This document shows positions 3,695 to 24,187 of a stretch of DNA of 31,134 bases, piece by piece; position 1 is the first letter of the stretch; every line of letters begins with the position of its first letter. The stretch comes from an uncultured virus (IMG/VR IMGVR_UViG_3300006921_000001) (lineage: Duplodnaviria; Heunggongvirae; Uroviricota; Caudoviricetes), in the IMG/VR virus record IMGVR_UViG_3300006921_000001. The stretch is one strand, 5' to 3'. A program made the translations under genes and the position numbers. The notes beneath the pieces were generated by a model that saw nothing but the letters and a program-made list of their open reading frames with translations, was not told where the DNA came from and ran no database searches.

Positions 3695-3898
3695 TTAGCA
3701 CCCACCGACAATTGCCTGTGTGAGTACGATTTCGTTAACATCATTGAAGTTAACATTCGCAATTTCTTCGCGGCTGACTAGTTCGCCATCCACGTAAGCC
3801 CAATGCGTTGGGTGTTCAATAATTTGTTCAAGTGCGCCTTCTGCGCTCATCATAAGTTCCGTGTGTCCTGTCTCATTTAAAATTGTTACCTTTACCAT
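3695..3898 (-). CDS. ubiquitin-like (SAMP/ThiS/MoaD beta-grasp) protein ending IVGG-C
   Basis: 67 aa from ATG 3898 after AGGTGA; N-terminal VKVTIL strand, central VDG, EIVL...IVGG tail. Confidence 0.7.
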   Translation of the reverse strand: MVKVTILNETGHTELMMSAEGALEQIIEHPTHWAYVDGELVSREEIANVNFNDVNEIVLTQAIVGGC

Positions 3899-4020
3899 TT
3901 CTTTCACCTTGTTGTTTGGCCCTCTCGGGCAATTTATACTACGCTTAGGTGGTATATAACCATCACGCTGTATTGTATTTTAGACATTTTGATATACTTT
4001 TTTCTCATTCATTCTGTTCG

Positions 4021-4293: not shown

Positions 4294-4547
4294 ATTGTTC
4301 TACCTCTATAATCTGCCCAGCGTCTTGCAGTTATTTCTGCTTCAGCATCAAGATACCAATGTCTAAAGAATATAGACATTATGATATTACCTATAGCCAT
4401 CATGAAAAACCACTGATTAAAATAAGATAGAATCGACAAAGTTATTCCCAGAAACAAATTAATTCTAGATAATATATTCATAGTATCCCGGAAAGCCAAC
4501 ACATCTATGTCGCGCTTATTTTCCAAGTATTCACTAACTAATCCCAT
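4290..4547 (-). CDS. two-TM membrane protein
   Basis: Two hydrophobic segments. Confidence 0.7.
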   Translation of the reverse strand: MGLVSEYLENKRDIDVLAFRDTMNILSRINLFLGITLSILSYFNQWFFMMAIGNIIMSIFFRHWYLDAEAEITARRWADYRGRTI

Positions 4548-4857
4548 GTATTTCTACCTCGCTATGTTTACTGTTACCACAAGGACAAGTATCTAACCTG
4601 TATAGTTTATCCCCTAGTATATTGTATGTAGAAACAAACGCCTTACCACAATCACAATATAGGTGCGATACATCAAACTCTGCAGGAACTCCTTCCATAT
4701 AATATATTATACAAGTCACCCCTACTATTAATGAAATGCTTTGCCAAATATCAAAAGTGTCAGGGTATACACTCTGAGTATAAACTACCCAAAGTATGCA
4801 GATAGCCCCAACCACTATCAAATATGGTTGTACTATACGTCTTATAGTTAGTCCCAT
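4534..4857 (-). CDS. two-TM membrane protein with C-terminal CxCG...CPCG zinc ribbon
   Basis: Hydrophobic segments; CDCG and CPCG. Confidence 0.7.
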   Translation of the reverse strand: MGLTIRRIVQPYLIVVGAICILWVVYTQSVYPDTFDIWQSISLIVGVTCIIYYMEGVPAEFDVSHLYCDCGKAFVSTYNILGDKLYRLDTCPCGNSKHSEVEIHGIS

Positions 4858-5138
4858 AAATCTTCACTGTTCCTCTTTGCCACTAACCATAGAACACAAT
4901 ATCCTGCCAAGTCGAGAAATATATCCTCATCTTTTTCTATTGCATCATGTCCCATCGCCAATCTTGAAATCTTATCATCCATTCGGACTCGTATCAATTC
5001 CTCAGCACTTCCATTCGCAAATATCCCAACAGGGTTCAATGCTGAATCTCCATACTGTTCATTTTTCAGAACCAAAAGTTCTGTCAATTCTTTCATCACT
5101 TTCTTAATCTTCCTAGTTGTATCTTCTGTGTCTGTCAT
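4848..5138 (-). CDS. DUF1599 / nucleotide-modification-associated domain 1 (Nmad1)-like protein
   Basis: KN-x-x-YGDS, RMDDKISRL and DLAGY motifs; GGTGA upstream. Confidence 0.75.
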   Translation of the reverse strand: MTDTEDTTRKIKKVMKELTELLVLKNEQYGDSALNPVGIFANGSAEELIRVRMDDKISRLAMGHDAIEKDEDIFLDLAGYCVLWLVAKRNSEDLWD

Positions 5139-5179
5139 TTAATCACCAAATTGCATACCTATGTATATCTTTTCTTTTT

Positions 5180-5545
5180 CATTCTGCACAAGAAACCACT
5201 TTTCCTACACATTTTGCACACTATTCCTACGTGAGAAATCAATATGTGCAAGAAATCTGGATTTTCCAGTGCATTTTGTAACTATTCCTATTTTCCTACT
5301 TTTCCTATGGGGTCACACCCATATACACATATAGACCCATATATCTATAACAAAATGTAATAGATAAAATAGTGTGTGTGTAGTAGTAGGTAGGAATAGT
5401 AGGAATAGTAGGAATATTTACAATATGTAATAGATAATACTATTTTCTTGTTCATAATGATTTCCTACGCATAGGAAAAGTGAGAAGGTGTTGCATAATG
5501 TCAAAGAAAATGAGTGAGAATTTGAATTACCCCATTATGCAACAG
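5180..5545. repeat. iteron-like cluster of TAGGAA/TTCCTA direct and inverted repeats; candidate replication origin
   Basis: TAGGAATAG tandem at 5391-5416; reverse copies near 5200, 5221, 5282-5307 and 5461; ATGTAATAGATAA twice; 12-bp inverted repeat 5489-5500/5533-5544; no ORF. Confidence 0.55.
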
Positions 5546-6308
5546 AAAAAGGTAGTTATTAAATCATAATAACCATGTAATTATTGTAAATTTTTAAGCG
5601 TTAGTTTATATAACAACTAGGCACAATTTACAAATAAAAGGAATCTGTTTGTATGCGAGTTCTATTCATCGTGTCACTCGCATACCTATCTGACCCCCGC
5701 CCCGTATATAAACCGCGACGGCCCAAAAAGACATTTTCTATAGCGTATTTAAATACATCCATTGTAAATGCCTATCTAGATACAACCATATGGGTGTGGA
5801 AAGAAATTCCATCAATAACCCTTGCTGCGGTAAGCATGGCAGTAGCACTATAGACGCTTCATTAATTACACTAACAGTTAATTATTCATTGTCTACTTGT
5901 GCACTGCCTGCTACCATATGGTACAGATAAATAGTTTGACACTAATTACTCATCTTCGTCAAACATCTGTTACCCTCCTGTGGATTCTCCATTTTACTTA
6001 CGTGGAGAACCATATGGTTCGGTTTACGGTATACGGATGTATATGTATTCTGCTGTGCAGATATACTATTAAATCTGATACTCCGTATTCGATAAACCAA
6101 TGAACCTTGCTATTTCTTTCTCGCGCGGAATCCGGGGCCGGCAATAAATACATTTATTATGCCTTAACGAATGCTCCATTCTGTCCTTACTTTATGGACA
6201 AGAATGTCTCATTAGTACCATATGGTTGTTTTTGCTAGCGAGTAATAAAGGGAGGTGCAACGAACTAAAACGAAAATTTGTATAGTTTTTGCTTTCTTTA
6301 TTACGAGC

Positions 6309-6357
6309 AAAAAAATACCCCAGTCGGGTGGAAGGAGGGGTTTTACCCCCTCCCTCC
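6309..6357 (-). terminator. GC-rich hairpin followed by a T-run downstream of 6394..6852
   Basis: GGAGGGG 6334-6340 / CCCCTCC 6347-6353; A-run 6309-6315 reads as a T-run on the minus strand. Confidence 0.45.
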
Positions 6358-6393
6358 GAGGACATTTTGAGGCTTAAGCCTCGTCTTCATCTC

Positions 6394-6852
6394 TCATTGG
6401 ACATCGCCCTTGAGGAATGTGATAACGTCTTCTGCTGTACTAACGTCATTATCTGCCTTGATGAGGCGGTTAATTCTGTTAATACAAATCTCCTGCATCT
6501 TTGCTTCATCTCTAAGGGTGTTATCCCTCAATGTTAGAAGACGAAGCAGTAGATGAGCATCTCCGCGAATTGTCTGTTCTGCCTTGATAGATTCAGGATT
6601 ACCGGGTGTCTTACCACCGGGGCAAGCATTGTCAGTTCCTTGATATCGCTTTATGATTCCTGAAATCATCATCATTTCAGCCTTCTTTGCATTATCATCA
6701 CCTTCATTTCCACGGACTACGGAATCTTCAAGGAAGTCCTTAGTAGCAGTATCAGCGTCTTTCTCAGACCAGAATAACATAGCAAGCCATTTAGTGACTC
6801 GCTCCATCAATTTAGTCCATTTTTGTTCAGTTGTTGGTTTTGTTTCGACCAT
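6394..6852 (-). CDS. hypothetical protein embedded in the hairpin array
   Basis: 152-aa ORF; TTTAAGTA box 28 nt before ATG. Confidence 0.8.
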   Translation of the reverse strand: MVETKPTTEQKWTKLMERVTKWLAMLFWSEKDADTATKDFLEDSVVRGNEGDDNAKKAEMMMISGIIKRYQGTDNACPGGKTPGNPESIKAEQTIRGDAHLLLRLLTLRDNTLRDEAKMQEICINRINRLIKADNDVSTAEDVITFLKGDVQ

Positions 6853-6908
6853 ACTAAGTCATTTTTATAGGGTACTTAAACTTACCACAAAGTTTTCTTT
6901 TAAGTACC
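6853..6908 (-). promoter_or_regulatory. archaeal TATA-type promoter (TTTAAGTA, 6880-6873) inside a stem-loop arm
   Basis: Spacing fits a leaderless transcript; shares TATAGGGTA-y-TTAA and ACAAAGT with the copy at 9441-9495. Confidence 0.6.
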
Positions 6909-7275
6909 ATATGGTCCTCAACTTCAGTGGGACCAGAAATGGGGATAACGATACTAATACTAGGCCGCATCACCTCGTATTCACGACGTTTGATAAGTCG
7001 TATCGTACCATATGGTGACAAGGGAGCCCTAAAACGCGGTATTCACTACGTCAGAACATGCGGACATTAACTTGACTCTTTTCAGCGTTGTAAAAAACAT
7101 TTACTAACAGCAACAAAAAAAGCCGGCGTTAATGCCGTTTCTGTACCATATGGTTCGAGTTTGTATAACTTTGAGATACAAACGACTTTTGAATACATGG
7201 AAAAAGCGAACCTCAAAATTAAAAAAAGAAAAAATTGGTTTTTGTTAACGCGGAACCGTAAAACCGCGATGCAGG

Positions 7276-7446
7276 TCAATCTCTCAAAGAATCCCGTGAC
7301 TGATAGTCACCAGATTCAGTGATTGTTTGAACATGCCCACACTTATTGCATCGGATAACCGATTCTTGCGTCCATAACCTAGAATGGTGATGTATCGCTT
7401 TGTGTGTTTTTACTATTGTGTTATTGTTGTGCCTGCAATTGGTCAT
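7276..7446 (-). CDS. 56-aa zinc-finger-like protein (MTNCRH...RCNKCGHVQ...)
   Basis: Read by hand; CxH and CxxC; ATGA overlap with 7443..7616. Confidence 0.65.
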   Translation of the reverse strand: MTNCRHNNNTIVKTHKAIHHHSRLWTQESVIRCNKCGHVQTITESGDYQSRDSLRD

Positions 7447-7616
7447 TCGTTCAACTCCTTAAGTCGTTTCTCAACCTCTTCGGTTATTCGCCTTGTTGAG
7501 GCAATTAACTCGCTTTCGGAAGTGGAAGAAATACGTAAAGATTCAACAATGTAGTTTTGATACCTATCTTGCTTAATCTTTAAGACGAATTCAGGCCGAC
7601 GGAAGAATCTAAGCAT
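7443..7616 (-). CDS. 57-aa hypothetical protein (MLRFFRRPEFVLKIKQD...)
   Basis: Read by hand; TAATG and ATGA overlaps with both neighbours. Confidence 0.65.
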   Translation of the reverse strand: MLRFFRRPEFVLKIKQDRYQNYIVESLRISSTSESELIASTRRITEEVEKRLKELNE

Positions 7617-7945
7617 TACTGCCTACACTCCTTCGCCTGATTTGCCAGCCAATCTTGACGGCGTTGGTCATCAGTTCTCCAATCCCAATGTGAATAGGCA
7701 TCCTGAATCCACTTAGGATTCTCTTCAACCAATTCACGGAACTTATGACCGGCTCTTAGAGCCTTAAGTCGTTCCCTGCGCCAAATTGGGTTATCCCAAT
7801 TGTAGGCCTCTTTCTTAGAATTGTGTTCTGGAGCGATTCGCTTGAATCCCTTCACATACAATCCGTATTTTTTTCCATGTCGCTGTGTAAATGTATTACT
7901 CATGGCCCCAACCTCCGCAATTTTGGCAATCACCGTGGTCGGCAT
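7616..7945 (-). CDS. hypothetical basic Trp-rich protein
   Basis: ORF track; first gene of a coupled three-gene string. Confidence 0.75.
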   Translation of the reverse strand: MPTTVIAKIAEVGAMSNTFTQRHGKKYGLYVKGFKRIAPEHNSKKEAYNWDNPIWRRERLKALRAGHKFRELVEENPKWIQDAYSHWDWRTDDQRRQDWLANQAKECRQ

Positions 7946-8188
7946 TGTATTTCATTTCACATACTATACATTGTGTCATATTTGTTCACCTGCAAATTAA
8001 AAAAGGCGACTTTTTTGGTATCGCAGAAAGTCGTAACTGCGCCGATGGTCAAAATCGTGTTTCATCGGATTAATTTTAGCACCTATTACCGGATGCCTCG
8101 GATTTGGCTTTTTTAGGTCGTGAGAAGCCATTAACTCACGGGAAAAAGGCTTAAGCCTCTTCCTCATCGCGGACTATGATGATAATCA

Positions 8189-8824
8189 TCATTCATCCGC
8201 TCCAGTTTGCACTGAATCAGTAGATTCTTCCGCTGTGACCGTAAAGGTCATGTCGGAATTACCGTCCCAGATATTAGCACGGTATTTGCTCATTAGGTTC
8301 TGCTTCTCAGCATTAACCTTTAGAGCGACGAACTCTTCACGGGTTTCAATAACGCCGTAAGGGTTCTCAGAATCTCGTCCCGAAAGACGAAGAACCGATA
8401 GATGGTTCACATTCTGAATATCTGCTGATATGTCGAAGACATTTCCCCAGAACTCTTCAGCAACTGCAATGTGAGAATCAAGGTTTGCCTGAATCTCAGG
8501 GGATAATGTAGTTCCCCGTCCACGCTGGAAAGGCCATGAAAGAGAAATACCGTATCTCTCCTGCATTTGCCTACCAGTTAGGTGGATGCGCTGCTTTAGT
8601 TCACTGGATGGTGTTTCATCAGCCATTTGCTCCAACAACATACTTATCTGTTGTAGGTCGAAAGAAGCATAGTTCTTTTGCTTCTTCGTGCTGATGGCGT
8701 TTACCAGTGGGGTGGCCGCCTCATGCCATTCGTTCACCTTTGCGGAATAAACCGCAAAGTCATCTTCGCTCATTACTTTCGTGTTTTCACTCATTTTTGT
8801 CACACTCTTTGTTGTTTCTGCCAT
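8189..8824 (-). CDS. hypothetical protein embedded in the hairpin array
   Basis: 211-aa ORF; TTATATAT box upstream. Confidence 0.85.
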   Translation of the reverse strand: MAETTKSVTKMSENTKVMSEDDFAVYSAKVNEWHEAATPLVNAISTKKQKNYASFDLQQISMLLEQMADETPSSELKQRIHLTGRQMQERYGISLSWPFQRGRGTTLSPEIQANLDSHIAVAEEFWGNVFDISADIQNVNHLSVLRLSGRDSENPYGVIETREEFVALKVNAEKQNLMSKYRANIWDGNSDMTFTVTAEESTDSVQTGADE

Positions 8825-8841
8825 TCCTGACAGATATCTAT

Positions 8842-8895
8842 CGTATTTGAATCCTATATATAAGGTAGCCTAACAAAGTGGCTACCATATGGTAC
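8842..8895 (-). promoter_or_regulatory. promoter repeat copy (TTATATAT 8863-8856) abutting hairpin and ACCATATGGT
   Basis: Aligns over about 54 nt with 9441-9495. Confidence 0.65.
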
Positions 8896-8949
8896 GAGTT
8901 TAACGCTTTGAATTAAACGACTTTTGAAGAATGATAAAAGCGTACCTTG

Positions 8950-8972
8950 AAAAAAAAATAAAAAAAAAGAAA
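8950..8972 (-). terminator. oligo-T tract (archaeal-type terminator)
   Basis: Near-pure A-run on the plus strand; a similar tract lies at 7215-7234 after the 7276..7945 genes. Confidence 0.55.
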
Positions 8973-9440
8973 GGGAAGTCAGGAGCGTAAACAAAACAGT
9001 CGGTTAGCACGTTTTCGACATGAGTTATCGGCCGATTCTCATGCGATACTAAGGTGGAAACCCGTTCTGCAATACTCCATCATTCCCACGGGAAAAGAAA
9101 GGGTGCGGGTAGGACTACCTCGGGATAAGGGACACCTACAAAAGATTCACCGGATTACCCGTATACATTTGGTTTCGTATAGCGAAGGTTGGTTGACGGC
9201 TACTCTATCTTAACTCACCACAATAGGCTCTTACTCCTACTGTTGCTACTAACTACCCGCTAAGGTAATCCCGCTATTAAATCGGTCACGCTACGCCTTT
9301 TGATTATTATGACGTTATTGCACGATGGCAACACAAACGCATTTGGACACTATATCCAGTTGAGCAGGTGATTATCTTACCAATGCTTCACATCGGTTGT
9401 TCGATACACCACGGTCGGGTTTGCGGCCCGACATATCAGA
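8973..9440 (-). ncRNA. candidate structured non-coding RNA with a pseudoknot
   Basis: Lies between the promoter copy and the T-tract; no ORF of 60 aa or more; multiple stems and two crossing 8-bp helices. Confidence 0.55.
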
Positions 9441-9495
9441 CGTATTTGTATAGGGTATTTAAGGTAACTTTAACAAAGTAGTTACCATATGGTAC
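9441..9495 (-). promoter_or_regulatory. promoter repeat copy (TTAAATA on the minus strand) abutting hairpin and ACCATATGGT
   Basis: Paralog of 8842-8895. Confidence 0.6.
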
Positions 9496-10796
9496 TGGGG
9501 CAACTGGTAATTCTATGGTTGCGGTTTCTGCAGAAACCATTTTGCAAATTCCGGGAAACCACTCGGAATAATATAATTACCGTTGTCCCGTGTCCCCACC
9601 GTGGGGTTCACTTAAACTATCAGTTAAGTACCATATGGTTGGCGGTTTACGTGCGACGGAAACTTCTAGTTTACTTAAGTAATACTACTAGGATGAGGTG
9701 TTTTAATTGTTATTAAAGCCGAAGACGACGTTAATTGCTTAGGGTCGTTGCCGATAAACCAAATGACAAAACCTTACTTGTTTACGCGGCTGGGGGCTCA
9801 ACGTTCACCATAGATTCGTGATTTCACGACGAATCTTATGTTTCTCTTATTCACACCATATGGTACGAATCTATATAATTTTTTGATAATATCAAAAAAG
9901 GAGTAATAGTTGTCTTCGAGAAAATGAGACAAATATGTACGACTGATACTTTTTGTGAAAAATTACATAGATGAGTCCCTAGCGGCTTTCCGCGCCAGAG
10001 CGGGAGTACAGACCTCTAAACCCCTTTAGTAAAACACCTATAAATAAAAACATTTATTATCATAAATCTTTTACTAGGATTTATGTTAATGTAACGGTAA
10101 ACCATTACATTTACTAAACCCACAGTGCCTTAGAATTCTGTACCATATGGTGTGAACCTCATGAGGTTCTTATATCCCGCGAAACCCCTGCCCCTAACCC
10201 AAATAAATTACTTTTATTTCACTCAGCGTAGCCTCTCCCATGTAAAAACATTTAACATATACGTGTCTACGCCCTGCGAAAGAAAACTAACGCTGTCGCT
10301 ATTTCTTTGCACGTCCCATGTTATGATTCATACAACCATATGGTCCACATTTATGTTGGGACCCCGACGAGGCACAAAGGCTTATTGTTTTTAAATTTCA
10401 TTAGAGATGAAAAAGCATAACGCTGACGCTCAACAAGCGTACCATATGGTCCCATCCCCGAGGTATTCCCGTTGGCTTAACTTTCCTTGAATAAAGGAAT
10501 TTTTACCCGTTATTAAATACAATTAATAGTGCAAAAACCCTACCGTTTCATTTATCCTGCAGAAACTCAAGTACCATATGGGTGGCCTTGATTATAATTG
10601 AATTTATAATAAGGTGCCGCGTTAGGCAAACCCGCACCGCTGCGGTACTACAATGATTTAATTAAACACATTAGTACCATATGGTTCCGCTTTGCGTGAA
10701 CTTATTTTGTTATTTAAATAAAAAAACCAAATAACCCATTCAGATACCCAATCTTTATAGGGAACCCCAAAGTTTGCCTATTACAGAGGGAAAAAT

Positions 10797-11153
10797 ATGT
10801 ATACCTTCAATTTTAACTTAGGTGGCGGGCAAAATACACCCGATACACATGATTTTGAGCCAATAGTCAAGGCACTAAAAGACATTACAGAGGATTGGCA
10901 ATCATTCTATAACCTATACAAAAGATTCGCGCCACCACCAGAAGAAAACCAAGCCCAAATACAAGCATGGTTTAAAGAAATCAAACTTTCCCTCGACGCA
11001 ATCATAGAATTGTATAATAAAATACCTAATTCGCCAGATATGGACAATATACATGGCCCGGAAGAAGCAGAAAATATGCTAAATCAATTCGTTGAATTGA
11101 ATAAGTTATTTCAACCAGACAAACCAGATACAGATACAACAGGATATAATTAA
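10797..11153 (+). CDS. hypothetical acidic helical protein
   Basis: ORF track; TTTATA at 10754 and GAGG upstream. Confidence 0.7.
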   Translation: MYTFNFNLGGGQNTPDTHDFEPIVKALKDITEDWQSFYNLYKRFAPPPEENQAQIQAWFKEIKLSLDAIIELYNKIPNSPDMDNIHGPEEAENMLNQFVELNKLFQPDKPDTDTTGYN

Positions 11154-11325
11154 ATACGCTATTTAAATAATGTTATTTAGATAAACCTTGGAAATAGAAT
11201 AAAAAAAATAATTAAATTTTCGCTAGTCGCAAAAAAATTACCGCCCAATTTTTGAAAAATGAAAAATGATATGGAAGTGTTGTAAGCATAGTAACTTTTA
11301 TTAATAATATAACAGATGATAAACT

Positions 11326-13461
11326 ATGTGGCGTGATATTCTCAAGGATGAAGGTAGGTCATTAGCCTCATATATAGATACTCCGGGTACTCGACTTAAT
11401 CCAAGTATTTTTAATATTGATGATGTTGCTTACAGTGCAGGTGCGCGAGAATTATTCGGTGAAAGAAATGAGAAGTCACTCATAATAACTGAAGAAAAAG
11501 GAAATGAAATTGTTATAGCAATATACAAAGGAGAAATTCTTAGTGAAGTTGTTGATGATTGTAAAAATTTTCTAAAGGAATTTTTAGAAACAGAAATATT
11601 TAATAATCTAGAACAAGTCCAAAAAGGGCCTATTGATAAAATATTAGATGATACTGTTAGACCTATAGTTGCTAGATTTGTTGGTAGAATGCTTGGTGTG
11701 TTTTTTGAAGATAGCACTCCAATAAGAGAGGGAGGGATTTTAGCGTCAGGAAAACTTAGAGTCAATAATGAAGTTACTGTAAATACAATTGTGTATGGTG
11801 ATTATCTACAAGGTTTAAAGGACGCAGTACATGACAATGCGGGAACGACAGTCACTTATCCGGGTTATATTGGCAATCCGAGTGCGGTTGATATAAAGAA
11901 TAACCTAGGTGAGTTAGTCCATGATTCAGGGGCTCGAAGAACTGATTCATATAGATTTAGGGATAAATATGGCTCAAGCAATAGAGCATATCTTCGTCAC
12001 TCTGATTGGCACTCCACTTTAAGTTTAACTAGTGACGAAGATTACGGCGGAGATGCCGGCTCAGGCGAGCCTCTGAAAATACCTAGGTCACAAAGGGTTA
12101 CTAATGCAAACAATCAAACATATGTTAGAATTCAAAAAGATAATTTAAATAATATGAGTAATGAGAATCTATCTAATATGATTATAAAACACATGGACGC
12201 TACTCTTGGCAATCTAGGCCGCGACCATCGACCGAGTAAAGCAATGGATGTAACACGTAAGTTTGTACAACAAATATTATCTGAAAAAAATATAGCAGAG
12301 CATTTAGGGGGCAACCCCGTATTAGCAAGAGAACTTTTTACTTATGGTGGGCAAATGCGAGATGTTCCGGGTAAGAATCCAGAAGATATTATGGAACGTC
12401 TTCCAGAATACACCAAGAGAAATTTACAAATCGAGCGAGAAAGTCCGGGTGTAGAAAACTATAAGGTATTACTTGGAGACCAAGAACTTTTAAGGACGTA
12501 TTTTTCTCTTAGATTTGGAATTGACAGGAGTAAGCCCATAAAAATAAAAGGGATTAGACGTAGTAAACCAATTGCACAAGTTACACATGCAGGTCTCCGT
12601 CGCAAAGGACCCTTTACTAATACTTCTCTTATATATGGTGCTAGAAACCCAGAAGGCAAAGAATATTTAGATGTAGCAAGATTTGGCTATACTCATACAA
12701 AAATTCATCAGCCAGTCGAGGCACTAAAGGAGATACTAGGGATGTTAACCAATACTAAAGAAAAATCACCAAGGTATGATATGCCAGTAGATTTAGTTGC
12801 ACACTCTAGTTTAGAAAGCACAATAGCACAAAGTAAAGAAGAGGATGGGGTATCATGGGAATATAGTAATATAAATGAAAGACATTTTGTAAAGATAGAA
12901 CATTCAATACCCTACCCTTCAGATAGTTATCTCATAGAGTATTTTGACCAGATTTTCGGAGGAACAAATGTTGACAGAGTGTATGATATGATACAAGACG
13001 CAATGGAAAATGATACAATGGCAGTATTAAAGTTTAAATTTTATGTTGATGCCACGGGTGGAAGAAGAGTAAAATATGACAGGGGTAGTTCGGAAATAGA
13101 GTATGAGGGTTTTCCCGATGATACACAAACCAATTATGCTGGCCAAGCACATTATTGTATATATGATAGGATTGATAGGACAATAGAAGAAGACAGGGCA
13201 GGTCAGGTTTGCATAATTAGTTATGCGGATAATTTAGGAGATTCTGTTGTGCAATTTTTAATGGGGCAAAAAAACATATTTCCCGTATTAAAAGGTAATT
13301 ATAGAGATGGTTCCGTAAGTATTTCTAAGGACTACATCACAAGGGAAGACATAGAGCATATAGCGATGGTCCCAGACGATTTAAAAAGACCCTTAAAACA
13401 ATTAGTTGATTTAATCATATGGCGTGGGAAAAGAAGCAGGTTAAAAGTAATCGAAGAGTAA
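11326..13461 (+). CDS. large hypothetical protein with N-terminal MWRDILK motif
   Basis: 711-aa ORF; TTTTATTA 30 nt before ATG. Confidence 0.85.
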   Translation: MWRDILKDEGRSLASYIDTPGTRLNPSIFNIDDVAYSAGARELFGERNEKSLIITEEKGNEIVIAIYKGEILSEVVDDCKNFLKEFLETEIFNNLEQVQKGPIDKILDDTVRPIVARFVGRMLGVFFEDSTPIREGGILASGKLRVNNEVTVNTIVYGDYLQGLKDAVHDNAGTTVTYPGYIGNPSAVDIKNNLGELVHDSGARRTDSYRFRDKYGSSNRAYLRHSDWHSTLSLTSDEDYGGDAGSGEPLKIPRSQRVTNANNQTYVRIQKDNLNNMSNENLSNMIIKHMDATLGNLGRDHRPSKAMDVTRKFVQQILSEKNIAEHLGGNPVLARELFTYGGQMRDVPGKNPEDIMERLPEYTKRNLQIERESPGVENYKVLLGDQELLRTYFSLRFGIDRSKPIKIKGIRRSKPIAQVTHAGLRRKGPFTNTSLIYGARNPEGKEYLDVARFGYTHTKIHQPVEALKEILGMLTNTKEKSPRYDMPVDLVAHSSLESTIAQSKEEDGVSWEYSNINERHFVKIEHSIPYPSDSYLIEYFDQIFGGTNVDRVYDMIQDAMENDTMAVLKFKFYVDATGGRRVKYDRGSSEIEYEGFPDDTQTNYAGQAHYCIYDRIDRTIEEDRAGQVCIISYADNLGDSVVQFLMGQKNIFPVLKGNYRDGSVSISKDYITREDIEHIAMVPDDLKRPLKQLVDLIIWRGKRSRLKVIEE

Positions 13462-13471
13462 GGTGAAAAAG

Positions 13472-14365
13472 ATGGAATGGGAAAATAAATTAATCAAAAC
13501 ACCATATAGAGAAATTACTCAAGAGCGGGTTGGTGAAATCACTAGAGAGTATATTAATGTTGAAGGTGAAACCTATGACAAAATATATTCCGGGGCAAAA
13601 AAAGGTGATACTCCTAGTACTTATTGGACTCATGACCCAACTATGGCTTTATGGTATGCAATAAAGGGTGACACAATAGCACCAACCAATAGGTCTGGTA
13701 CTCCAATTATTTTTGAAGCAGATGTAACTGAAGAAATAATAGATGTTTACAAAGACCCAGAAACAGATGGTGGTTTAATTGATTTAGAGGACACTGTAAA
13801 AAATTACCGAGTAATTGAAGGTCCAGAGTTGGCGCAATTTATGGAAGATAATTATGTTGATGGATATTATATGGGGCTTCATCCAGAAGAATACGATAGA
13901 ACAATAGATGTATTGCGAACTGGTGACGAGAGGGCTATGGAGCATTTCTTTGGTCCTAGAATTACAGATGTTAGACAAAGCATGAGAACTAAAGATTATA
14001 AAAAGCGAGCAGCCGACCAATATTGGAGGGCTTTCGTCCGCAACGGTAAGTTAAAAACTAAGGATGAAGTAGAAAAATCTTGGGTGGAAACAATTAACAA
14101 AAAGGATAAAAAAGATATGCGAGTAGGTAGTGTATACCCTAGTGATAGAGAGGGTAAGAAAATTATGATGCTTACTCATGAAGGTAAGAAAATTCATGCT
14201 GGCGCTAAAGGTTATGGTAATTGGAAAGGAAAAGGTAAAAACAGAGGCGGTGGCACACATAAAAACCCAAAACGTCGAAAGAGTTTTAGAGCAAGACATA
14301 AATGTGACCAATGTAAAGGAAGAATTACAACTTCTAAATGTTTAGCCTGTAAAAAGTTGTGGTGA
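13472..14365 (+). CDS. two-module protein: N-terminal possible ADP-ribosyltransferase-like domain plus basic KNPKRRKSFRARHKC module
   Basis: ATG 13472 after AGGTGA gives MEWENKLIK; internal SWVETINK between the modules; domain calls rest on motif resemblance only. Confidence 0.6.
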   Translation: MEWENKLIKTPYREITQERVGEITREYINVEGETYDKIYSGAKKGDTPSTYWTHDPTMALWYAIKGDTIAPTNRSGTPIIFEADVTEEIIDVYKDPETDGGLIDLEDTVKNYRVIEGPELAQFMEDNYVDGYYMGLHPEEYDRTIDVLRTGDERAMEHFFGPRITDVRQSMRTKDYKKRAADQYWRAFVRNGKLKTKDEVEKSWVETINKKDKKDMRVGSVYPSDREGKKIMMLTHEGKKIHAGAKGYGNWKGKGKNRGGGTHKNPKRRKSFRARHKCDQCKGRITTSKCLACKKLW

Positions 14366-14369
14366 TAAT

Positions 14370-14840
14370 TTGTGGGAAGATATTATTAAAGCGGAATTTC
14401 AGGTTAAGACAAATTTTCCTGATGCAGATATTTGGCTTCAAACTAGAGGTGAGGATAAAAACGTTGGCAAACCACTGAAGCAATTTTCTTCCGTTCAAGG
14501 CAAATACAATTACGGTATTAAACTTCCCGAAGGCTGGAATAAAGATTATGTATTCAAGCAGTTGGCCGATTTATATAGAAACGGTCATTGGAAGATTCAT
14601 TCTTATGGTACTTTAAATTTACAACATATTCGCAAGGACGATATTTTGCAGGTCTTAGATAAGTTGGAAAACAAAGAAGATTATACGGATGAAACTTCTG
14701 AAAAGTTTCAAGAAATATATGAAAACTGGCTTACATATTCAAAAGCAGTTGCTGAAATGTTAGAAGGTCATAGTTCAGAACTTGTACGCGAAGGTAGAGA
14801 AATAAAACGGTTTATAGAAAAACTAGAGGGTATGAGATAA
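14370..14840 (+). CDS. hypothetical protein (MWEDIIK), weak resemblance to type I R-M specificity half-domains
   Basis: TTG start after GGTGA; DADIWL-x-x-RG...VGK and GT...HI-x-x-x-DI pattern. Confidence 0.6.
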   Translation: MWEDIIKAEFQVKTNFPDADIWLQTRGEDKNVGKPLKQFSSVQGKYNYGIKLPEGWNKDYVFKQLADLYRNGHWKIHSYGTLNLQHIRKDDILQVLDKLENKEDYTDETSEKFQEIYENWLTYSKAVAEMLEGHSSELVREGREIKRFIEKLEGMR

Positions 14841-14855
14841 TTTATATAGAACATA
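14841..14855 (+). promoter_or_regulatory. TTTATATA-NW-ACATA promoter motif
   Basis: 30 nt before ATG 14871; recurs at 19521, 20345 and 24412. Confidence 0.7.
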
Positions 14856-14870
14856 AACGAGTGAATAAAT

Positions 14871-15071
14871 ATGAATTGGTTCGATGTTATTAAATCGGAT
14901 AAAATAATTGAAGATAAAATTATTGCAGAGTTCAAAAAAGAAGGAGGTGCTTTAGGTATGAAAAACCTTAAAGCAATTGCACCACCTAAAGAACTCAATA
15001 GAGTCCTAGATGCTATGAAGCGCAGAAAACTAATTTATGTGCATGAGCATGGCGATTTAATTATGAGGTGA
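14871..15071 (+). CDS. small winged-helix-like protein (MNWFDVIK)
   Basis: Helix-turn-helix plus beta-hairpin pattern. Confidence 0.7.
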   Translation: MNWFDVIKSDKIIEDKIIAEFKKEGGALGMKNLKAIAPPKELNRVLDAMKRRKLIYVHEHGDLIMR

Positions 15072-15075
15072 ATAA

Positions 15076-15657
15076 ATGTGGTGGGGTGTAATTAAATCAA
15101 AATGGATGGGCCAAATGTCCGACAGTAAAAAGGAGTTACTTGAACACGAACCTAAAATTAAAATTGATATTCCTAAGATGTCTTACCCTGATGACCGTAA
15201 AGAAGTTAAAGAAGTAATAAAGGTAATGAAAGAAAAACCAGTGCCCGAAGATATTATGTCTAAACACGACAAAGATTCCGACCAAGTATTATTTGATATT
15301 GTAGATGCAAAAAGTTCTGATTATGAAGATTTTATAAAAGACGTTAACTCGTACGTAATGCGAGAGAAAGTAAAATATGCAAGAAAAAGACCAAATGAAG
15401 TTTCTGATATTGTAGAAAGTAAAACAGAAACAGATGATACTCCGGCTTTTCCTTCGGGTCACGCAACTTTAGTTTATGCTTTAGAAAAAATGTTAGCCGA
15501 CAAATACCCTAATAAAGCAGAACAATTAAATAATACCACTGAGATGTTAGCATTAGCAAGAGTTCAACTTGGTTCACACTATCCTTCGGATATTAAAGCA
15601 GGTAAACAATTGGGATATTTAATAGCAAAAAAATACTTGGGGGATAAAAACAAATGA
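15076..15657 (+). CDS. PAP2-family phosphatase (MWWGVIK leader)
   Basis: K-x6-RP (KVKYARKRP), FPSGH and R-x5-H-x3-D (RVQLGSHYPSD) motifs. Confidence 0.85.
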   Translation: MWWGVIKSKWMGQMSDSKKELLEHEPKIKIDIPKMSYPDDRKEVKEVIKVMKEKPVPEDIMSKHDKDSDQVLFDIVDAKSSDYEDFIKDVNSYVMREKVKYARKRPNEVSDIVESKTETDDTPAFPSGHATLVYALEKMLADKYPNKAEQLNNTTEMLALARVQLGSHYPSDIKAGKQLGYLIAKKYLGDKNK

Positions 15658-16109
15658 AATGGGAACATATATTAAAAAATGTTGAACAAGACGGTAGAGA
15701 ATTCATAAGTAATTACTTTGCAGAATTAATTAGTAGCATAGGTGGGGCAATAAACTCACTGCAGACCAACTTAGCAACCCTACTAGAAGCGAAGGCAAAG
15801 ATGATAAAAGACCGCGATGCACAAGAATCCCTAACAAGAAGGGTGTTAGATTCAATGTATGAAAAAAGTATTCAAGAAATAGACGAAGTTATTGAGCAAA
15901 CACAGAAACAACTAACTACGTTCCGGGGCATGGTTGTAGATATAAGAGGTAACGAGAGAATGATTGAAGGGCTACCAATAGGAGTGGCGTTAAAATCTCT
16001 TGAAGATTATTTTGAAGGAAAAGATACAACTGGCTTCCCTCCTTTAGATAGGCAAAAATTAGCCGAACTATTACATAGAATAGGTTTTGAAGGGAAGGGT
16101 ATGGAATGA
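15654..16109 (+). CDS. coiled-coil hypothetical protein (MKWEHILK)
   Basis: ATGA coupling; heptad-like helices. Confidence 0.75.
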   Translation: MKWEHILKNVEQDGREFISNYFAELISSIGGAINSLQTNLATLLEAKAKMIKDRDAQESLTRRVLDSMYEKSIQEIDEVIEQTQKQLTTFRGMVVDIRGNERMIEGLPIGVALKSLEDYFEGKDTTGFPPLDRQKLAELLHRIGFEGKGME

Positions 16110-17752
16110 CAGAAGATATTGACGACTTAGTAGAAAAGGCAAAAGTCCTAGCAGAAGCAACAGGTCGAGAGGAAGCCGATGTATTGGCCGACTTAATGGA
16201 TGACGGTGTGTTAAATGATTCACACAAAGAAACCGAAAAGACAGATTTAGTAACACAATTAAAAGAGGCTGCAGAACTAATTAATACTGTTCAGGCAATT
16301 AACCAAGAAGTTGCAGAAAACAAAGTGCTTAACGGTAACGGTAATTCCACTAACGTAGAAATTGATACTACACTAGAGGGCGATATTGTAGACAGGGCTA
16401 TTGAATCTGTCCAACGTAAAGCCGAAAATATTAAGAAGATTATTATTCTTGTCGCTCCATTGTTCTTATTAGTTGGAGGTGGAGGAACATTAGAGATGTT
16501 TGGAATAACCGACTTTACTGGTGATAACGATGAATACGAAGACCCTTACACGCCAGACATTACCACTCCTGAGATTTGGGGATGCACAGATTGGGAAGCA
16601 GATAATTATGATGAATATGCTACACTTGATGACGGTTCTTGTTATTATCCTGTATATGGTTGTATGAATAACGCTGCTCCAAATTATAATCCTGATGCAA
16701 CAGTAGAAGATGGTTCATGTACGCGTGGTGGTTGTATTGACCCCGAAGCAGAAAACTACGATGATACCGCTAACGAAGATGATGGAAGTTGCGAATATTA
16801 TGTAGAACCTATTTATGGTTGTACTGACTTAGAAGCAAATAATTATCAGAGTGAAGCAGAAGAAGACGATGGTTCATGCACTTATGACCCAGAGCCGGTT
16901 TATGGTTGCACAGATAATTCTGCTAATAACTATAATTTCGAAGCAACGGAAGATGATAATACTTGCGAATACGACCCTGAACCTATTTATGGTTGTACGG
17001 ATGATAACGCAAATAATTATAATCCCGATGCTACTGATGACGATGAGTCATGCGAATATGACCCAGAATTAGAATGTGAAGTAGAAATTACTAATCACTA
17101 TAGAGGTCATGTACAATCAGATGCAGAACAAGATGCAATATTAATTGCCTTTAGAATTGTTCCTACAGATTGTGATGATGAGGTTTTAGAAATAGACATA
17201 GATATGCACCCACCCGGAGAAGATGACGAAGTAGATTATACTCACTATGTAGAAGTTAACGGTAGTGAACCAACAGATGTTTCTTATACTTTTGATAATG
17301 TAGCGGTAGGTGTTTGGGTTCCACGAATTACTGCGGCAATTGACGATGAACCAATAGAAAGAATTTGGATGTGGTCAATCGAAGTAGTAGAGCAGGTTTG
17401 TGAAATTAATTTGTTCGGTATTAATTTTGGAACAAACAATACTTCTGCTGTTGTTATTTATGACCTTGATTGCGGTGACGAGGAAAATGACTTAGACGGA
17501 TATAACGTGTCTGTGCAGTTCCTTGTGTATTCTGTTAACTCGTCAAATAACACTAACCCTCCTATTCAACTCAATACCACAACACATTATATTCAGGGTT
17601 ATGCAGACGACCCACGTATGCTTAGGTTAACTAATTTTACTGAAGGAAATACTACTCGGTATGACTTTTATTGGTATGTTACTTGGGTAGATGCTGATGG
17701 TGAAATGCAATATATTGAACGCACTTGGTTAAATAGAGAATTGGCTCCGTGA
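16106..17752 (+). CDS. single-pass membrane protein with six GC-x-D-x-x-A-x-NY...DD-x-x-C repeats
   Basis: TM IIILVAPLFLLVGGGG, six acidic Cys repeats and a beta-rich C-terminus with N-x-S/T sequons. Confidence 0.85.
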   Translation: MTEDIDDLVEKAKVLAEATGREEADVLADLMDDGVLNDSHKETEKTDLVTQLKEAAELINTVQAINQEVAENKVLNGNGNSTNVEIDTTLEGDIVDRAIESVQRKAENIKKIIILVAPLFLLVGGGGTLEMFGITDFTGDNDEYEDPYTPDITTPEIWGCTDWEADNYDEYATLDDGSCYYPVYGCMNNAAPNYNPDATVEDGSCTRGGCIDPEAENYDDTANEDDGSCEYYVEPIYGCTDLEANNYQSEAEEDDGSCTYDPEPVYGCTDNSANNYNFEATEDDNTCEYDPEPIYGCTDDNANNYNPDATDDDESCEYDPELECEVEITNHYRGHVQSDAEQDAILIAFRIVPTDCDDEVLEIDIDMHPPGEDDEVDYTHYVEVNGSEPTDVSYTFDNVAVGVWVPRITAAIDDEPIERIWMWSIEVVEQVCEINLFGINFGTNNTSAVVIYDLDCGDEENDLDGYNVSVQFLVYSVNSSNNTNPPIQLNTTTHYIQGYADDPRMLRLTNFTEGNTTRYDFYWYVTWVDADGEMQYIERTWLNRELAP

Positions 17753-17757
17753 TTATT

Positions 17758-18051
17758 ATGCCAATAAGAAAAGTTAAAGGTGGATATAAATGGGGTAAAT
17801 CCGGTAAGGTTTATCCTACTCGTAAACAAGCAGAAAAACAAGCAGCCGCCGCTTACGCTTCTGGTTATAAAAAATCAGAAGAACAAGGAGAATGGTTTAA
17901 TACCATTAAAGCAAAAAAGAAAACAAAAAAGGATGCTTGTTATCATAAAGTAAGAAGCAGATATGATGTTTGGCCTTCTGCTTATGCTTCTGGTGCTTTG
18001 GTTCAATGTCGTAAAGTTGGTGCAAAGAACTGGGGGAAGAAAAAGAAATGA
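17758..18051 (+). CDS. small basic two-module protein (KDACYHKVRSRYDVWPSAYASG module)
   Basis: ATG 17758; internal EWFNTIK separates the modules. Confidence 0.75.
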   Translation: MPIRKVKGGYKWGKSGKVYPTRKQAEKQAAAAYASGYKKSEEQGEWFNTIKAKKKTKKDACYHKVRSRYDVWPSAYASGALVQCRKVGAKNWGKKKK

Positions 18052-18332
18052 CTTGGGAACAAATACTAAAACGCAAACTAACTGCAAAACCTTCTTCTGA
18101 AACTTCTCTTAGAGATTGGTTTGGACGTAAAGGAGCCAAAGGTAGTAAAAGCGGTTGGGTAGATTGTAATACTTGCCGTAAAGATAAGAAAACTGGTCGT
18201 AAAAAATGTAAAGCATGTGGTCGCAGTAGTGGCGAAAAACGTGCAAAATATCCTAAGTGTAGACCAACTCCAGCAGGATGTAGTAAAAAAGGTAATTACG
18301 GTAAAAAATCAAAGGTGGGCAGAAAAGGATGA
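18048..18332 (+). CDS. small basic Cys-rich protein (MTWEQILK)
   Basis: SLRDWF...WVDC...CGR...YPKCRP; ATGA coupling. Confidence 0.8.
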   Translation: MTWEQILKRKLTAKPSSETSLRDWFGRKGAKGSKSGWVDCNTCRKDKKTGRKKCKACGRSSGEKRAKYPKCRPTPAGCSKKGNYGKKSKVGRKG

Positions 18333-18763
18333 AATTTAAATTATTACCAGAAGACACCTTTCGTGGTATGGTAACTAATTTTACTTCAGCAATAGACAAA
18401 GGCTATCCTAATATTGTTTCCCCACTTACGTATTATGCTTATGTCGCAGAAGATTCTGTATTAGGTTATTCATCATTTTCAGACATGGGTGATTTTTACT
18501 TCGTAGGCAATACTTATATTCAGCCTGAAAATCGCGGTCAAGGAATATACACTAAATTACTTTCTAATCGCAACGCACATCTTTCTGATAAACCTAAAAT
18601 TACTTTAGTAAACCCAATAGAGGGCACAGATATTGCGGTGCTTTTTAGACAAGTTAATAAACAAGGTGGGATTAAGGTAGAATCATACAAGGACGTGGAA
18701 GATATTATGTGTCAAGATATGTATAATAAACTAAACACTCTTCCTTTGTTTATTTATAGGTGA
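18329..18763 (+). CDS. GNAT-family N-acetyltransferase
   Basis: YIQPENRGQGIYTKLL acetyl-CoA-binding motif A. Confidence 0.75.
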   Translation: MKFKLLPEDTFRGMVTNFTSAIDKGYPNIVSPLTYYAYVAEDSVLGYSSFSDMGDFYFVGNTYIQPENRGQGIYTKLLSNRNAHLSDKPKITLVNPIEGTDIAVLFRQVNKQGGIKVESYKDVEDIMCQDMYNKLNTLPLFIYR

Positions 18764-18768
18764 TTATT

Positions 18769-19191
18769 ATGAGTTGGGAATATATTTTAAAGGATGAGAC
18801 GTCCGGGCCAGTGTATCGTCCATTTACCACAAAACAATATATTGGCCTACTTGTATATGATTTTGTTGAGGAAAAGGAAACAGCATCACTTAAAGAAATT
18901 ATAGATTTTTTGCAAGACCTAGCACGTAGGCCGGATAGAGACATAGGCCCTAAAATGACGAAAGTGATAGCCGAAAGAAGAGGTATTTGGCCGGGTGGTT
19001 ACGATTACTATTTTGGGAAGCATGGAGATAAATTACAAAGAAAAATTACACAAAGCATAGGTAATAAAACTGACGCAGAGATGATGGCAATCGTAGGGGG
19101 AATGAAATTTCTAACTATGATTGATGATAATAAACTTAAAGTAGATGGAAATAGGCCAACACAAGAACGTATGGTAAATTGGGAATGGTGA
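18769..19191 (+). CDS. hypothetical protein (MSWEYILK)
   Basis: ATG 18769 after AGGTGA. Confidence 0.75.
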   Translation: MSWEYILKDETSGPVYRPFTTKQYIGLLVYDFVEEKETASLKEIIDFLQDLARRPDRDIGPKMTKVIAERRGIWPGGYDYYFGKHGDKLQRKITQSIGNKTDAEMMAIVGGMKFLTMIDDNKLKVDGNRPTQERMVNWEW

Positions 19192-19196
19192 TTACT

Positions 19197-19520
19197 ATGT
19201 CTTGGTTTAATATTATTAAAAATAGATTCGAAGCAGGTTCTGCTACACATGTAGCAATAGCGTGGGCAATTAATGATGATATTACTCGTAACGAGGTTAA
19301 GGAACTTATTACACATGAAGTGAGAGATAACCAATATTCTTCAATGGAAGATATTAGGCAGAAAATCGCAGGGCTTTTATCTAAAAATCTACCCCAACAT
19401 AGAGGTTTTATGATGGAGTTAGTAGATGAACATAGGGCTGGCTTAACAGATATTGATTGGGATGTAGTCGCTATGGAGTTCGATGAGTATATCAGAGAAG
19501 ATATGGAAGCATACAGATAA
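19197..19520 (+). CDS. hypothetical protein (MSWFNIIK)
   Basis: ATG 19197 after GGTGA. Confidence 0.75.
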   Translation: MSWFNIIKNRFEAGSATHVAIAWAINDDITRNEVKELITHEVRDNQYSSMEDIRQKIAGLLSKNLPQHRGFMMELVDEHRAGLTDIDWDVVAMEFDEYIREDMEAYR

Positions 19521-19535
19521 TTTATATATAACATA
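19521..19535 (+). promoter_or_regulatory. TTTATATA-NW-ACATA promoter motif
   Basis: 30 nt before ATG 19551. Confidence 0.7.
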
Positions 19536-19550
19536 AAGGGATGTGCCACT

Positions 19551-20336
19551 ATGCATTGGTTTAATATAATTAAAACGGCAGGCATTGAACGTAGAAGATT
19601 ATTTAGGGGAATTAATATCCCTAAAGAGATAGGTGAAATGCGTCCGGCAAATGTTAGAATAAGACCAAATGTAATTCTTACGAGACACGCAATAGAAAGA
19701 ATGCAAGGTAAAGACGTTAGTACAGAACCTACTATCGGTGCGAGAACCGGAGAAACAGTATATAGAGATTTAGAAGGTGTGTGGTATTTTGATGGTGCTA
19801 TGGATGCAATCCAAGAAGGCATAGAATCAGGCAGATTCAAGTCATTACTTAGTGGAAAATTTGGCAAAAAAGGACAACTAATACTAAGGCTTAATAATGT
19901 AGGTCACGGAAGAATGGGGTGGCTCGTAAGAAAACACAATACTTTAGAAAATACATTATACGTTACTACTTATTTATCTTACGGGGGTCTACCAGAAGGG
20001 TCCGGGGCTAACACAGTACAATTAAACAAAGTTTCTACACCTTTACACCCTATTAGTCCACCGCGTATGGATTCAGAACCGTGGGTTCATCCTAAAGACA
20101 GACAGAAAGAACAGGTGGAAAAACCTAAAGAACTATCTTGGCGAGAAAAGGCAGAGATAGAAATAGTTAAAATTAAGGGATTTCAGGAAAAGTTTCTCAA
20201 TCAAATATTCAGGGACCCACCCCCTACTAATACTAAGGAATTAATTGAGACGGCAAAATCTCAATCAGGAACTACTAATAGAGGAAAGTTCATGCAGCAA
20301 TTGGCGATGAACGCAGCATTGAAATGGGATTTTTAA
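19551..20336 (+). CDS. hypothetical protein (MHWFNIIK) with LTRHAIERM motif, possible RelE/BECR-like RNase fold
   Basis: T-x-HA-x-ER-M pattern and late VTTY strand; fold call is inference. Confidence 0.6.
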   Translation: MHWFNIIKTAGIERRRLFRGINIPKEIGEMRPANVRIRPNVILTRHAIERMQGKDVSTEPTIGARTGETVYRDLEGVWYFDGAMDAIQEGIESGRFKSLLSGKFGKKGQLILRLNNVGHGRMGWLVRKHNTLENTLYVTTYLSYGGLPEGSGANTVQLNKVSTPLHPISPPRMDSEPWVHPKDRQKEQVEKPKELSWREKAEIEIVKIKGFQEKFLNQIFRDPPPTNTKELIETAKSQSGTTNRGKFMQQLAMNAALKWDF

Positions 20337-20344
20337 TCAGTTAA

Positions 20345-20359
20345 TTTATATATTACATA
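20345..20359 (+). promoter_or_regulatory. TTTATATA-NW-ACATA promoter motif
   Basis: 30 nt before ATG 20375. Confidence 0.7.
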
Positions 20360-20374
20360 GGAGAATGACAACCC

Positions 20375-20560
20375 ATGCCGCGGACAGAATGGTTCAATAA
20401 TTGGTTAGACGACAATTTCCCAGAAGAAAATGTAGAAGAAGTTTTTGAAAAGACCCTTGAGTATATTGAGGATAGCAAAGACGATACTAAAACATTACAA
20501 AAAATCAAGGCTTACATAATGCAGGCTTTTACTATGGCTAAGGAAGATGAGGAAGAATGA
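20375..20560 (+). CDS. small acidic hypothetical protein
   Basis: ORF track; promoter upstream; ATGA coupling. Confidence 0.7.
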   Translation: MPRTEWFNNWLDDNFPEENVEEVFEKTLEYIEDSKDDTKTLQKIKAYIMQAFTMAKEDEEE

Positions 20561-20811
20561 CTTGGGAAACCTATCTTAAATCTATTGATACAAAAGAAAT
20601 CAATGATTGGTCGGAAGCACTCAAGGCTTTTATTAAGCAGGGTCGTGAACTAGGAATCCCGCTAGACGTTATGTCTGAATTAGAGAATGCCAATAAAGCA
20701 GCAGGAGCAACCACAACAAACGTCGGTGGTTTTACCCCTTCCATTCACAACATTTTGTATGGTTCATGCTCTAAGTGTAAAGACCAAAAATCAAAATGTG
20801 GGTGTGAGTAA
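20557..20811 (+). CDS. hypothetical protein (MTWETYLK) with C-terminal CxxC...CxC
   Basis: ORF track. Confidence 0.75.
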   Translation: MTWETYLKSIDTKEINDWSEALKAFIKQGRELGIPLDVMSELENANKAAGATTTNVGGFTPSIHNILYGSCSKCKDQKSKCGCE

Positions 20812-22529: not shown

Positions 22530-22531
22530 TT

Positions 22532-22783: not shown

Positions 22784-22788
22784 TAATT

Positions 22789-24169: not shown

Positions 24170-24187
24170 ACTTAAAGAGTGATTACA

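Follow-up and report, generated by a model that had tools for sequence, protein, structure and literature searches.

Genes and cassettes of the palindrome array

The window, which here denotes the complete analysed stretch of 31,134 nucleotides from an uncultured Caudoviricetes virus (IMG/VR IMGVR_UViG_3300006921_000001), harbors an array of 16 palindromes at positions 5785 to 10685, 14 of which match ACCATATGGT exactly and two with one mismatch. None is located elsewhere in the window, and shuffled sequences contained a mean of 0.05 and a maximum of one exact copy. The array is placed in the strand-switch region where divergent gene modules meet, and the cumulative GC-skew minimum of the window lies at 11246. 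The palindromes represent the joints between gene-bearing and gene-less cassettes (Table 1). The genes of the cassette 7145-8884 run leftward from a plain hairpin arm with a TATA-like box, and a branched arm (copy 1) forms its downstream, terminator-side end. The neighboring cassette 8884-9484 has its own promoter-type arm, contains no ORFs of at least 50 codons and terminates downstream in a second branched arm (copy 2), which lies outside the gene cassette. The promoter-side ends of the two cassettes are similar (78% over 63 bp in the comparison with 8834-8895), and A-tracts like those next to the branched arms follow plain arms at comparable places in related viruses.

A first-pass annotation had proposed that the two branched copies bracket the four-gene block as a cassette boundary. 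They are direct repeats, each to the right of a palindrome, and the related locus L052 possesses the gene block with copy 1 and lacks 8884-9484 with copy 2, which contradicts the bracketing. The boundary claim holds insofar as both junctions sit at cassette boundaries, but the boundary proper is the palindrome.

Table 1. Features of the palindrome array and of the two cassettes with branched arms
Feature	Position	Strand	Basis
Palindromic joint array with gene-bearing and gene-less cassettes	5785..10685		16 palindromes compared with shuffles
Six-codon acidic micro-ORF behind a Shine-Dalgarno-like word, gene-less cassette	5946..5966	-	Sequence
Palindromic joint that overlaps the start of copy 1 by three letters	7145..7154		New joints in L043, L052 and run X14
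Branched arm (three-way junction copy 1) at the downstream end of 7145-8884	7152..7212		Folding, alignment, relatives
Coding-strand T-tract separating genes and arm, probable terminator of archaeal type	7215..7234	-	Inferred
56-aa Cys-rich ORF, possible zinc finger	7276..7446	-	Weak matches only
57-aa ORF	7443..7616	-	Homologs in palindrome-bounded cassettes of 16 relatives
109-aa ORF	7616..7945	-	Homolog in L002; no family match
211-aa ORF, first gene of the cassette	8189..8824	-	Homologs in L002 and L004; no family match
TATA-like box directly beyond the promoter-side arm, putative promoter	8855..8863	-	Pattern in relatives
Plain hairpin arm on the promoter side, loop CTTTG/CAAAG; actual second end of the gene cassette	8864..8886		Folding
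Palindromic joint between gene cassette and ORF-less cassette	8884..8893		Palindrome count, strain comparison
Three-way junction copy 2, downstream arm of 8884-9484	8891..8946		Folding, strains, alignment
T-tract, probable terminator of the ORF-less cassette	8950..8972	-	Inferred
ORF-less cargo with conserved core, candidate non-coding RNA	8976..9445	-	Relatives
Promoter-side end of the ORF-less cassette, hairpin arm with TATA-like box	9456..9486	-	Sequence, folding

Used as a query, the 211-aa protein retrieved neither related viral loci nor phage records, and the 220-aa protein retrieved no phage records; the 445-aa core protein and the 118-aa array neighbor gave no usable matches in the protein atlas. 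The ORF-less unit, which extends from the promoter-type arm to the T-tract and has a conserved core and two ends that possibly pair, has homologs in L002 (10857-11319), L009 (9850-10360) and L001 (5615-6131) and a partial one in L013. We regard it as a candidate for a new viral non-coding RNA on the minus strand; it has no match in Rfam, and the predicted stability of the cargo alone is ordinary (z -0.39). In a second kind of gene-less cassette (about 90-200 nt), a Shine-Dalgarno-like word precedes a very short reading frame for 5-10 mostly acidic residues, which begins with a start codon located in a hairpin and is closed by a stop. Such cassettes are present in the window (5913-6018) and in L002, L003, L004, L006, L007, L009, L010, L012 and others; micro-ORFs were found in 31 of 117 short cassettes, in a scan whose spacing enriched such cassettes, and in at most one of the shuffled equivalents. 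They are possibly minigenes, ribosome decoys or antisense RNAs.

Scanning for two palindromes 85-115 bases apart yielded 39 viral loci, of which 31 share a protein with the window. Of the 61 occurrences of CCATATGG in six related records, 60 are located in one cluster each (2.4-5 kb), and the number (6-17) and order of the joints differ freely between relatives. The relatives G002 to G007 have a size of 92-99 kb, within the 65-100 kb of a magrovirus genome, and harbor PolB, which is split in three of the six, as well as archaeal-type replication and head-tail modules; G003 encodes a clamp loader, GroEL, ribonucleotide reductase, a ligase and the major capsid protein. This gene content fits that of group B magroviruses as described in the accessible part of PMC5434244, and the tRNA-Leu is among the shared features. 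The window has no hallmark gene and is linked to the group via the proteins shared with the 31 loci. Its carrier is probably a magrovirus-like marine virus, for which the gene content suggests an archaeal host. Among the 11 stretches that a genome scan for the joint pattern retrieved, none belongs to Poseidoniales, eight are single matches and three (L083-L085) with four full joints reside on the same 14.7-kb contig of a marine bacterial MAG, possibly a mis-binned virus.

Several further features of the window were recorded. Three tRNA genes (Lys, Glu, Leu) are located at 2343-2596 on the minus strand. A 70-aa protein (3695-3907, minus strand) with a Gly-Gly-Cys end is kept in 20 loci at 48-91% identity; it has no family match, and we assume that it is possibly ubiquitin-like. 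The non-coding stretch 5384-5767 to the left of the array shows internal inverted similarity and is 72% alike in L002. The 71 nucleotides from 11189 to 11259, which are non-coding, located at the GC-skew minimum and shared, as a conserved element, by 12 or more related loci and many contigs, represent a candidate origin or packaging signal. Many of the late-side ORFs on the plus strand (11326-24391), and likewise in G003, open with Met-x-Trp-x-x-(Ile/Val)-(Ile/Leu)-Lys, possibly a capsid-targeting or processing signal like that of T4 internal proteins, and a 548-aa acidic, Cys-containing protein comprises 87-nt coding repeats (16649-17067).

The branched arms and their origin

The sequence and coordinates that the first-pass annotation gave for the two three-way junctions, as well as the A-tracts that follow them (7215-7234 and 8950-8972), are correct, and the two branched folds are real. 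Under DNA energies, each copy has the three-way junction as its minimum-energy fold on either strand, with z-scores for the two strands of -4.4 and -4.8 (copy 1) and -2.8 and -2.9 (copy 2). RNA energies return the junction for the plus strand of copy 1 (z -2.25) and favor a different, unbranched fold for that of copy 2. Each copy shares its first three paired letters with the palindrome, namely the GGT of ACCATATGGT, a relationship that had escaped the initial description. The junction is no stand-alone element but starts within the palindrome as the other arms do, and the first loop of copy 1 contains the word CTTTG.

Homologous junctions were obtained from the palindrome-pair scan (L002) and from a junction-pattern scan of metagenomes (L043, L052/L060, L053/L061, L057), which retrieved 22 distinct loci; an exact pattern for the junction start matched no viral contigs. 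Seven of the 22 loci (L047, L048, L050, L051, L054, L058, L059) were set aside as lone palindromes without a junction fold. An alignment that included L047 (26.8 bits) was dropped and the alignment without it used for the covariation analysis, because this sequence is a chance match that inflated covariation. The remaining alignment comprises six distinct sequences and 17 pairs, a small sample of related sequences in which part of the columns was predetermined by the search pattern: TTT and TTTTGAA are necessarily invariant in L052, L053 and L057, but L002 was found without the pattern.

Pairing is retained in 99 of the 100 cells of this alignment, with two cells of copy 2 counted as gaps due to misalignment. 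Changes on both sides affect six of the 17 pairs (nine cells) and occur in all three helices; one-sided changes and wobble pairs are both absent. None of 500 shuffles, which ignore relatedness, reached this level of pairing and covariation. The only broken cell is a T.T mismatch in the closing stem of L043, and the same substitution (7209 A>T) is present in run X14. The earlier claim of a selected fold, originally derived from the two copies, is supported by the homologs, among which pair-breaking substitutions are confined to this one cell. The junction bases had been described as identical; the A is constant, but the GA is variable, with GC in L002 and L053 and GT in L057.

Such strict pairing with double changes in three helices could denote a stand-alone structured RNA (a small RNA or ribozyme) that functions through its branched shape. 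We consider this very improbable. Five weak Rfam matches in 5100-11400 are far below the gathering level and none is located on the junctions, the core words of the hammerhead consensus are absent at the junction, the junction begins inside a palindrome like any other arm, and homologous cassettes manage with plain arms. The latter is documented by the 57-aa gene, whose homologs define an equivalent cassette in 16 relatives: the far arm is branched in five of them, all from the lineage of the window, and short and plain in 11. A covariance model applied to 46 sources likewise confines the branched form to this lineage (ten true matches and one weak chance match). The branched shape is dispensable in relatives, and the extra helix would represent tolerated variation, in which pairing is kept and the shape itself is unnecessary.

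The ORF-less cassette exhibits a plain arm end in L002, L009 and L001, suggesting that copy 2 is the later of the two and most simply derived from the branched end of the neighboring cassette. The branched arm may accordingly have had a single origin in this lineage prior to its copying into the adjacent cassette. The sequence of copy 1 hints at a tandem duplication from which the extra helix may have arisen.

Cassette exchange and the structure of the joints

Two close relatives document how cassettes are exchanged. In L043, which is 98.7% identical to the window, segment 7007-7145 is absent, an extra segment is present at 6217 and 9484-9630 is inverted. In L052 (85-96% identical), 6009-6217 and 9484-9630 are inverted, 7007-7145 has moved, and 6906-7007 and 8884-9484 are absent from the stretch compared. 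Close strains thus delete, invert, insert and move whole cassettes, and the crossover is located inside the 10-13 bp core. All eight new joints, three in L043 and five including the inversions in L052, share 10-13 exact bp, the likeness of the exchanged arms does not exceed the background, and longer homologies on offer, such as the 91 bp over which the two junctions are 78% alike, were bypassed. Palindromes coincide with the ends of homology blocks in 11 of 11 cases for L052 and in five of seven for L043; across eight pairs of loci they do so at 29 of 50 ends, with about three expected. More distant pairs show few such ends (none of four for L007-L018, one of nine for L008-L019). Run X14 displays four of six joints at palindromes, possibly not independently of L043, and no joints were detected in the assembled contigs of runs X5, X12 and X15.

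The joints share a common layout of arm, ATAT and arm, in which the stem of each arm opens with the palindrome's own GG(T) and tends to close on a downstream (A)CC. Such core-anchored stems close within 100 nt in 241 of 594 arms, compared with 75 in shuffled and 108 in swapped controls, and in 13 of the 32 arms of the window. The stems of short arms covary, with Watson-Crick pairs in 153 and 122 of 236 arms at the outer positions 2 and 3 (shuffle maxima 101 and 73), and the pair closing the loop word is of Watson-Crick type in 157 of 227 (shuffle maximum 114). Of 602 arms, 237 have the word CTTTG after the core, and nine have the complementary CAAAG. Arms facing a gene usually have a CTTTG-type loop, read outward from the joint irrespective of gene direction. 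When the arms are sorted by a crude ORF rule that misclassed some of them, the word is present in 115 of 164 gene-leaving arms, in 102 of 159 gene-arriving arms and in 23 of 201 arms of gene-less cassettes. The two gene ends differ in what lies beyond the arm. Beyond promoter-end arms lies a TATA-like word (in 73 of 115 gene-leaving arms with the loop), most commonly TTATA or CTATA about 30-40 nt ahead of the start codon, and far-end arms are often followed by an A-tract or a CCGAAGG hairpin (21 of 102 loop-bearing gene-arriving arms), which appears as a UUCG loop on the arriving RNA. Counts of G.T and A.C pairs in the arms (66 versus 68.5 expected and 23 versus 35) single out neither a strand nor DNA or RNA as the folded molecule. 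L014, L017, L020, L026, L031, L032 and L035, and in most counts also L011, were left out of these arm counts as unrelated-looking, window-identical or duplicate rows.

This layout invites an explanation based on transcription, according to which palindrome and arms serve mainly as transcription signals. One cassette end would carry an operator bound by a protein together with a promoter hairpin, and the other an insulator hairpin or the hairpin of an RNA 3' end, with the junction as RNA read through a U-tract. Shuffling would follow incidentally from short-homology annealing at the most frequent repeat, with selection retaining the intact units. We consider it rather unlikely, albeit a serious competitor. 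The TATA-like words and CCGAAGG hairpins at the respective arms agree with it, and the PeSLs of T4-type phages operate in this way, according to the accessible part of PMC2839356. Palindromes moreover account for 205 of the 246 exact repeat pairs of at least 10 bp in the array (83% of the micro-homologies), so the position of the breakpoints alone is no proof of targeting, and outside the array L043 has lost the gene 4547-4849 at two start codons that share 6 exact bp, which documents that short-homology recombination works here without hairpins. On the other hand, the same loop word and core-anchored stem are present at both gene ends, the promoter-side arms are located upstream of the TATA box, and copy 2 shows no junction fold as plus-strand RNA. 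The distance between loop word and core varies by more than 10 bases, which a fold accommodates better than a rigid double-stranded operator would, and none of the new joints in L043 and L052 made use of the longer homologies.

An origin of replication or primase-loading region, in which the arms are single-strand initiation signals and rearrangements arise from nicks and forks, is improbable. The GC-skew minimum is located in the array or within 0.6 kb of it in the window and in all three relatives tested, but this switch equally follows from two divergent gene modules. The CTTTG word resembles the hairpin element bound by Rep in the AAV terminal repeat (accessible part of PMC10892565), but a match of five letters may be due to chance. 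The free variation in site number and order, the framing of genes with promoters and terminators and the absence of a Y1 HUH-type protein (PF01797, the Y1 family only) from five complete genomes all argue against an origin.

On balance, we favor the reading that the junction is a lineage-specific, elaborated DNA hairpin arm at the cassette ends of a shuffling joint that resembles PeSLs and integrons; the crossover is observed, and the DNA fold and the enzymes are those that the sequences make most plausible. With positions upstream of the TATA box and downstream of the T-tract, the arms would be excluded from the transcripts and thus act as folded single-stranded or extruded DNA. The self-complementary ATAT would stay exposed between the helices of two arms, which would designate the joint as the site of cutting and re-pairing, and the symmetric core would permit either orientation of a cassette. 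The five complete relatives harbor neither a tyrosine integrase (PF00589) nor a serine resolvase (PF00239), with a host enzyme remaining conceivable, and all five encode an ERCC4 (Hef/XPF) nuclease. A Sak4-like protein, a ligase and a PD-(D/E)XK nuclease are furthermore encoded by G003, of whose 103 ORFs 48 were covered by family scans and the remaining ones by the PF00589, PF00239 and PF01797 searches. XPF-type enzymes cut at the borders of stem and single strand. Based on this inventory and the lack of a known recombinase, we favor folded arms that steer cutting, annealing and ligation, most likely by the virus's own Hef/XPF nuclease, a Sak4/RadA-like annealing protein and the ligase rather than by a known integrase.

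Several observations weigh against this preferred reading. Stems are core-anchored in only 241 of the 594 arms, gene-less cassettes mostly lack the loop word, and palindromes dominate the repeats. The 6-bp loss in L043, the broken closing pair of the same locus, the distant pairs with few palindromic block ends, the three runs without joints and the indecisive wobble counts point in the same direction, and the enzymes named for the joint are candidates. A more far-reaching version proposes a dedicated, structure-guided recombination system of a new type, with a twin-hairpin DNA joint, marked by the exposed self-complementary ATAT and CTTTG loops, at which any end joins any other in either orientation, and an enzyme outside the tyrosine, serine and Y1-HUH families that cuts and rejoins it. 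The shuffled cargo would comprise acidic hexapeptide minigenes and a conserved non-coding RNA in addition to protein genes, and the three-way junction would reflect the shape tolerance of the site. We regard this version as possible but doubtful.

Comparison with known cassette systems

Magroviruses are abundant ocean viruses of uncultured archaea, and the variation of their accessory genes is undescribed in the literature searched. The array provides a precise substrate, with a 10-bp core, a loop word, covarying stems and natural variants from plain to three-way arms, and allows one to ask whether hairpins direct recombination in the absence of a known integrase. If they do, the array would represent an integron-like system built from other parts and possibly an orientation-free assembly tool; if not, it is still the archaeal-virus counterpart of PeSL shuffling. 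The branched fold by itself is a local variant, and the array matters more. A palindrome-cassette system was not found in the literature searched, and the terms "palindrom", "non-coding" and "intergenic" are absent from the main text of the magrovirus papers, whose supplements could show repeats.

The closest known likeness is that of the promoter early stem-loop (PeSL) cassettes of the T4-type phages RB49 and phi1, which according to the accessible part of PMC2839356 carry sigma70 boxes, share about 100 bp of similarity and recombine to chimeric units, with insertion, deletion and replacement described. In both systems, repeated stem-loops joined to promoters separate small uncharacterized genes within a plastic part of a large tailed-virus genome, cassettes are gained and lost at these units, and a dedicated recombinase has been identified in neither. 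Excised mini-circles are a further mark of PeSL cassettes; the comparison of runs for the present array covered assembled contigs. In comparison with the PeSLs as described there, the shared core of the present array is short (10-13 bp), symmetric and near-invariant, and arms are passed on whole without chimeric exchange over about 100 bp. Cassettes invert, have a hairpin at both ends and are in many cases gene-less, and the promoters, as judged by their TATA-like words, are of the TATA type and do not conform to the sigma70 -35/-10 pattern.

Integrons, as far as described in the accessible part of PMC2727003, likewise reorder cassettes at structured sites; their attC sites are folded single strands of conserved shape and variable sequence that tolerate a variable terminal structure, as the branched arm appears to do here. 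An integron employs a tyrosine integrase (IntI) with attI, and each of its attC sites is a single imperfect hairpin with extrahelical bases and an unpaired central spacer, of which one strand is recombined. In contrast to integrons, PF00589 is missing from the five complete relatives and was, in an additional search, found in none of three, the crossover core is located between two hairpins and not inside one, and it is symmetric, with cassettes that invert. The cassettes of the array have their own promoters, a strand preference is not seen in the wobble counts, and a pattern of extrahelical bases is not established.

Shufflons and other invertible segments use serine or tyrosine invertases and several short sites at which segments invert and reorder. 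The several short sites of the array permit the same two events, but matches to PF00239 and PF00589 are lacking, deletions and insertions take place too, and covarying hairpins flank the sites. What the window adds to these known systems is a branched arm as a derived variant, crossovers of 10-13 bp between unrelated arms and gene-less cargo.
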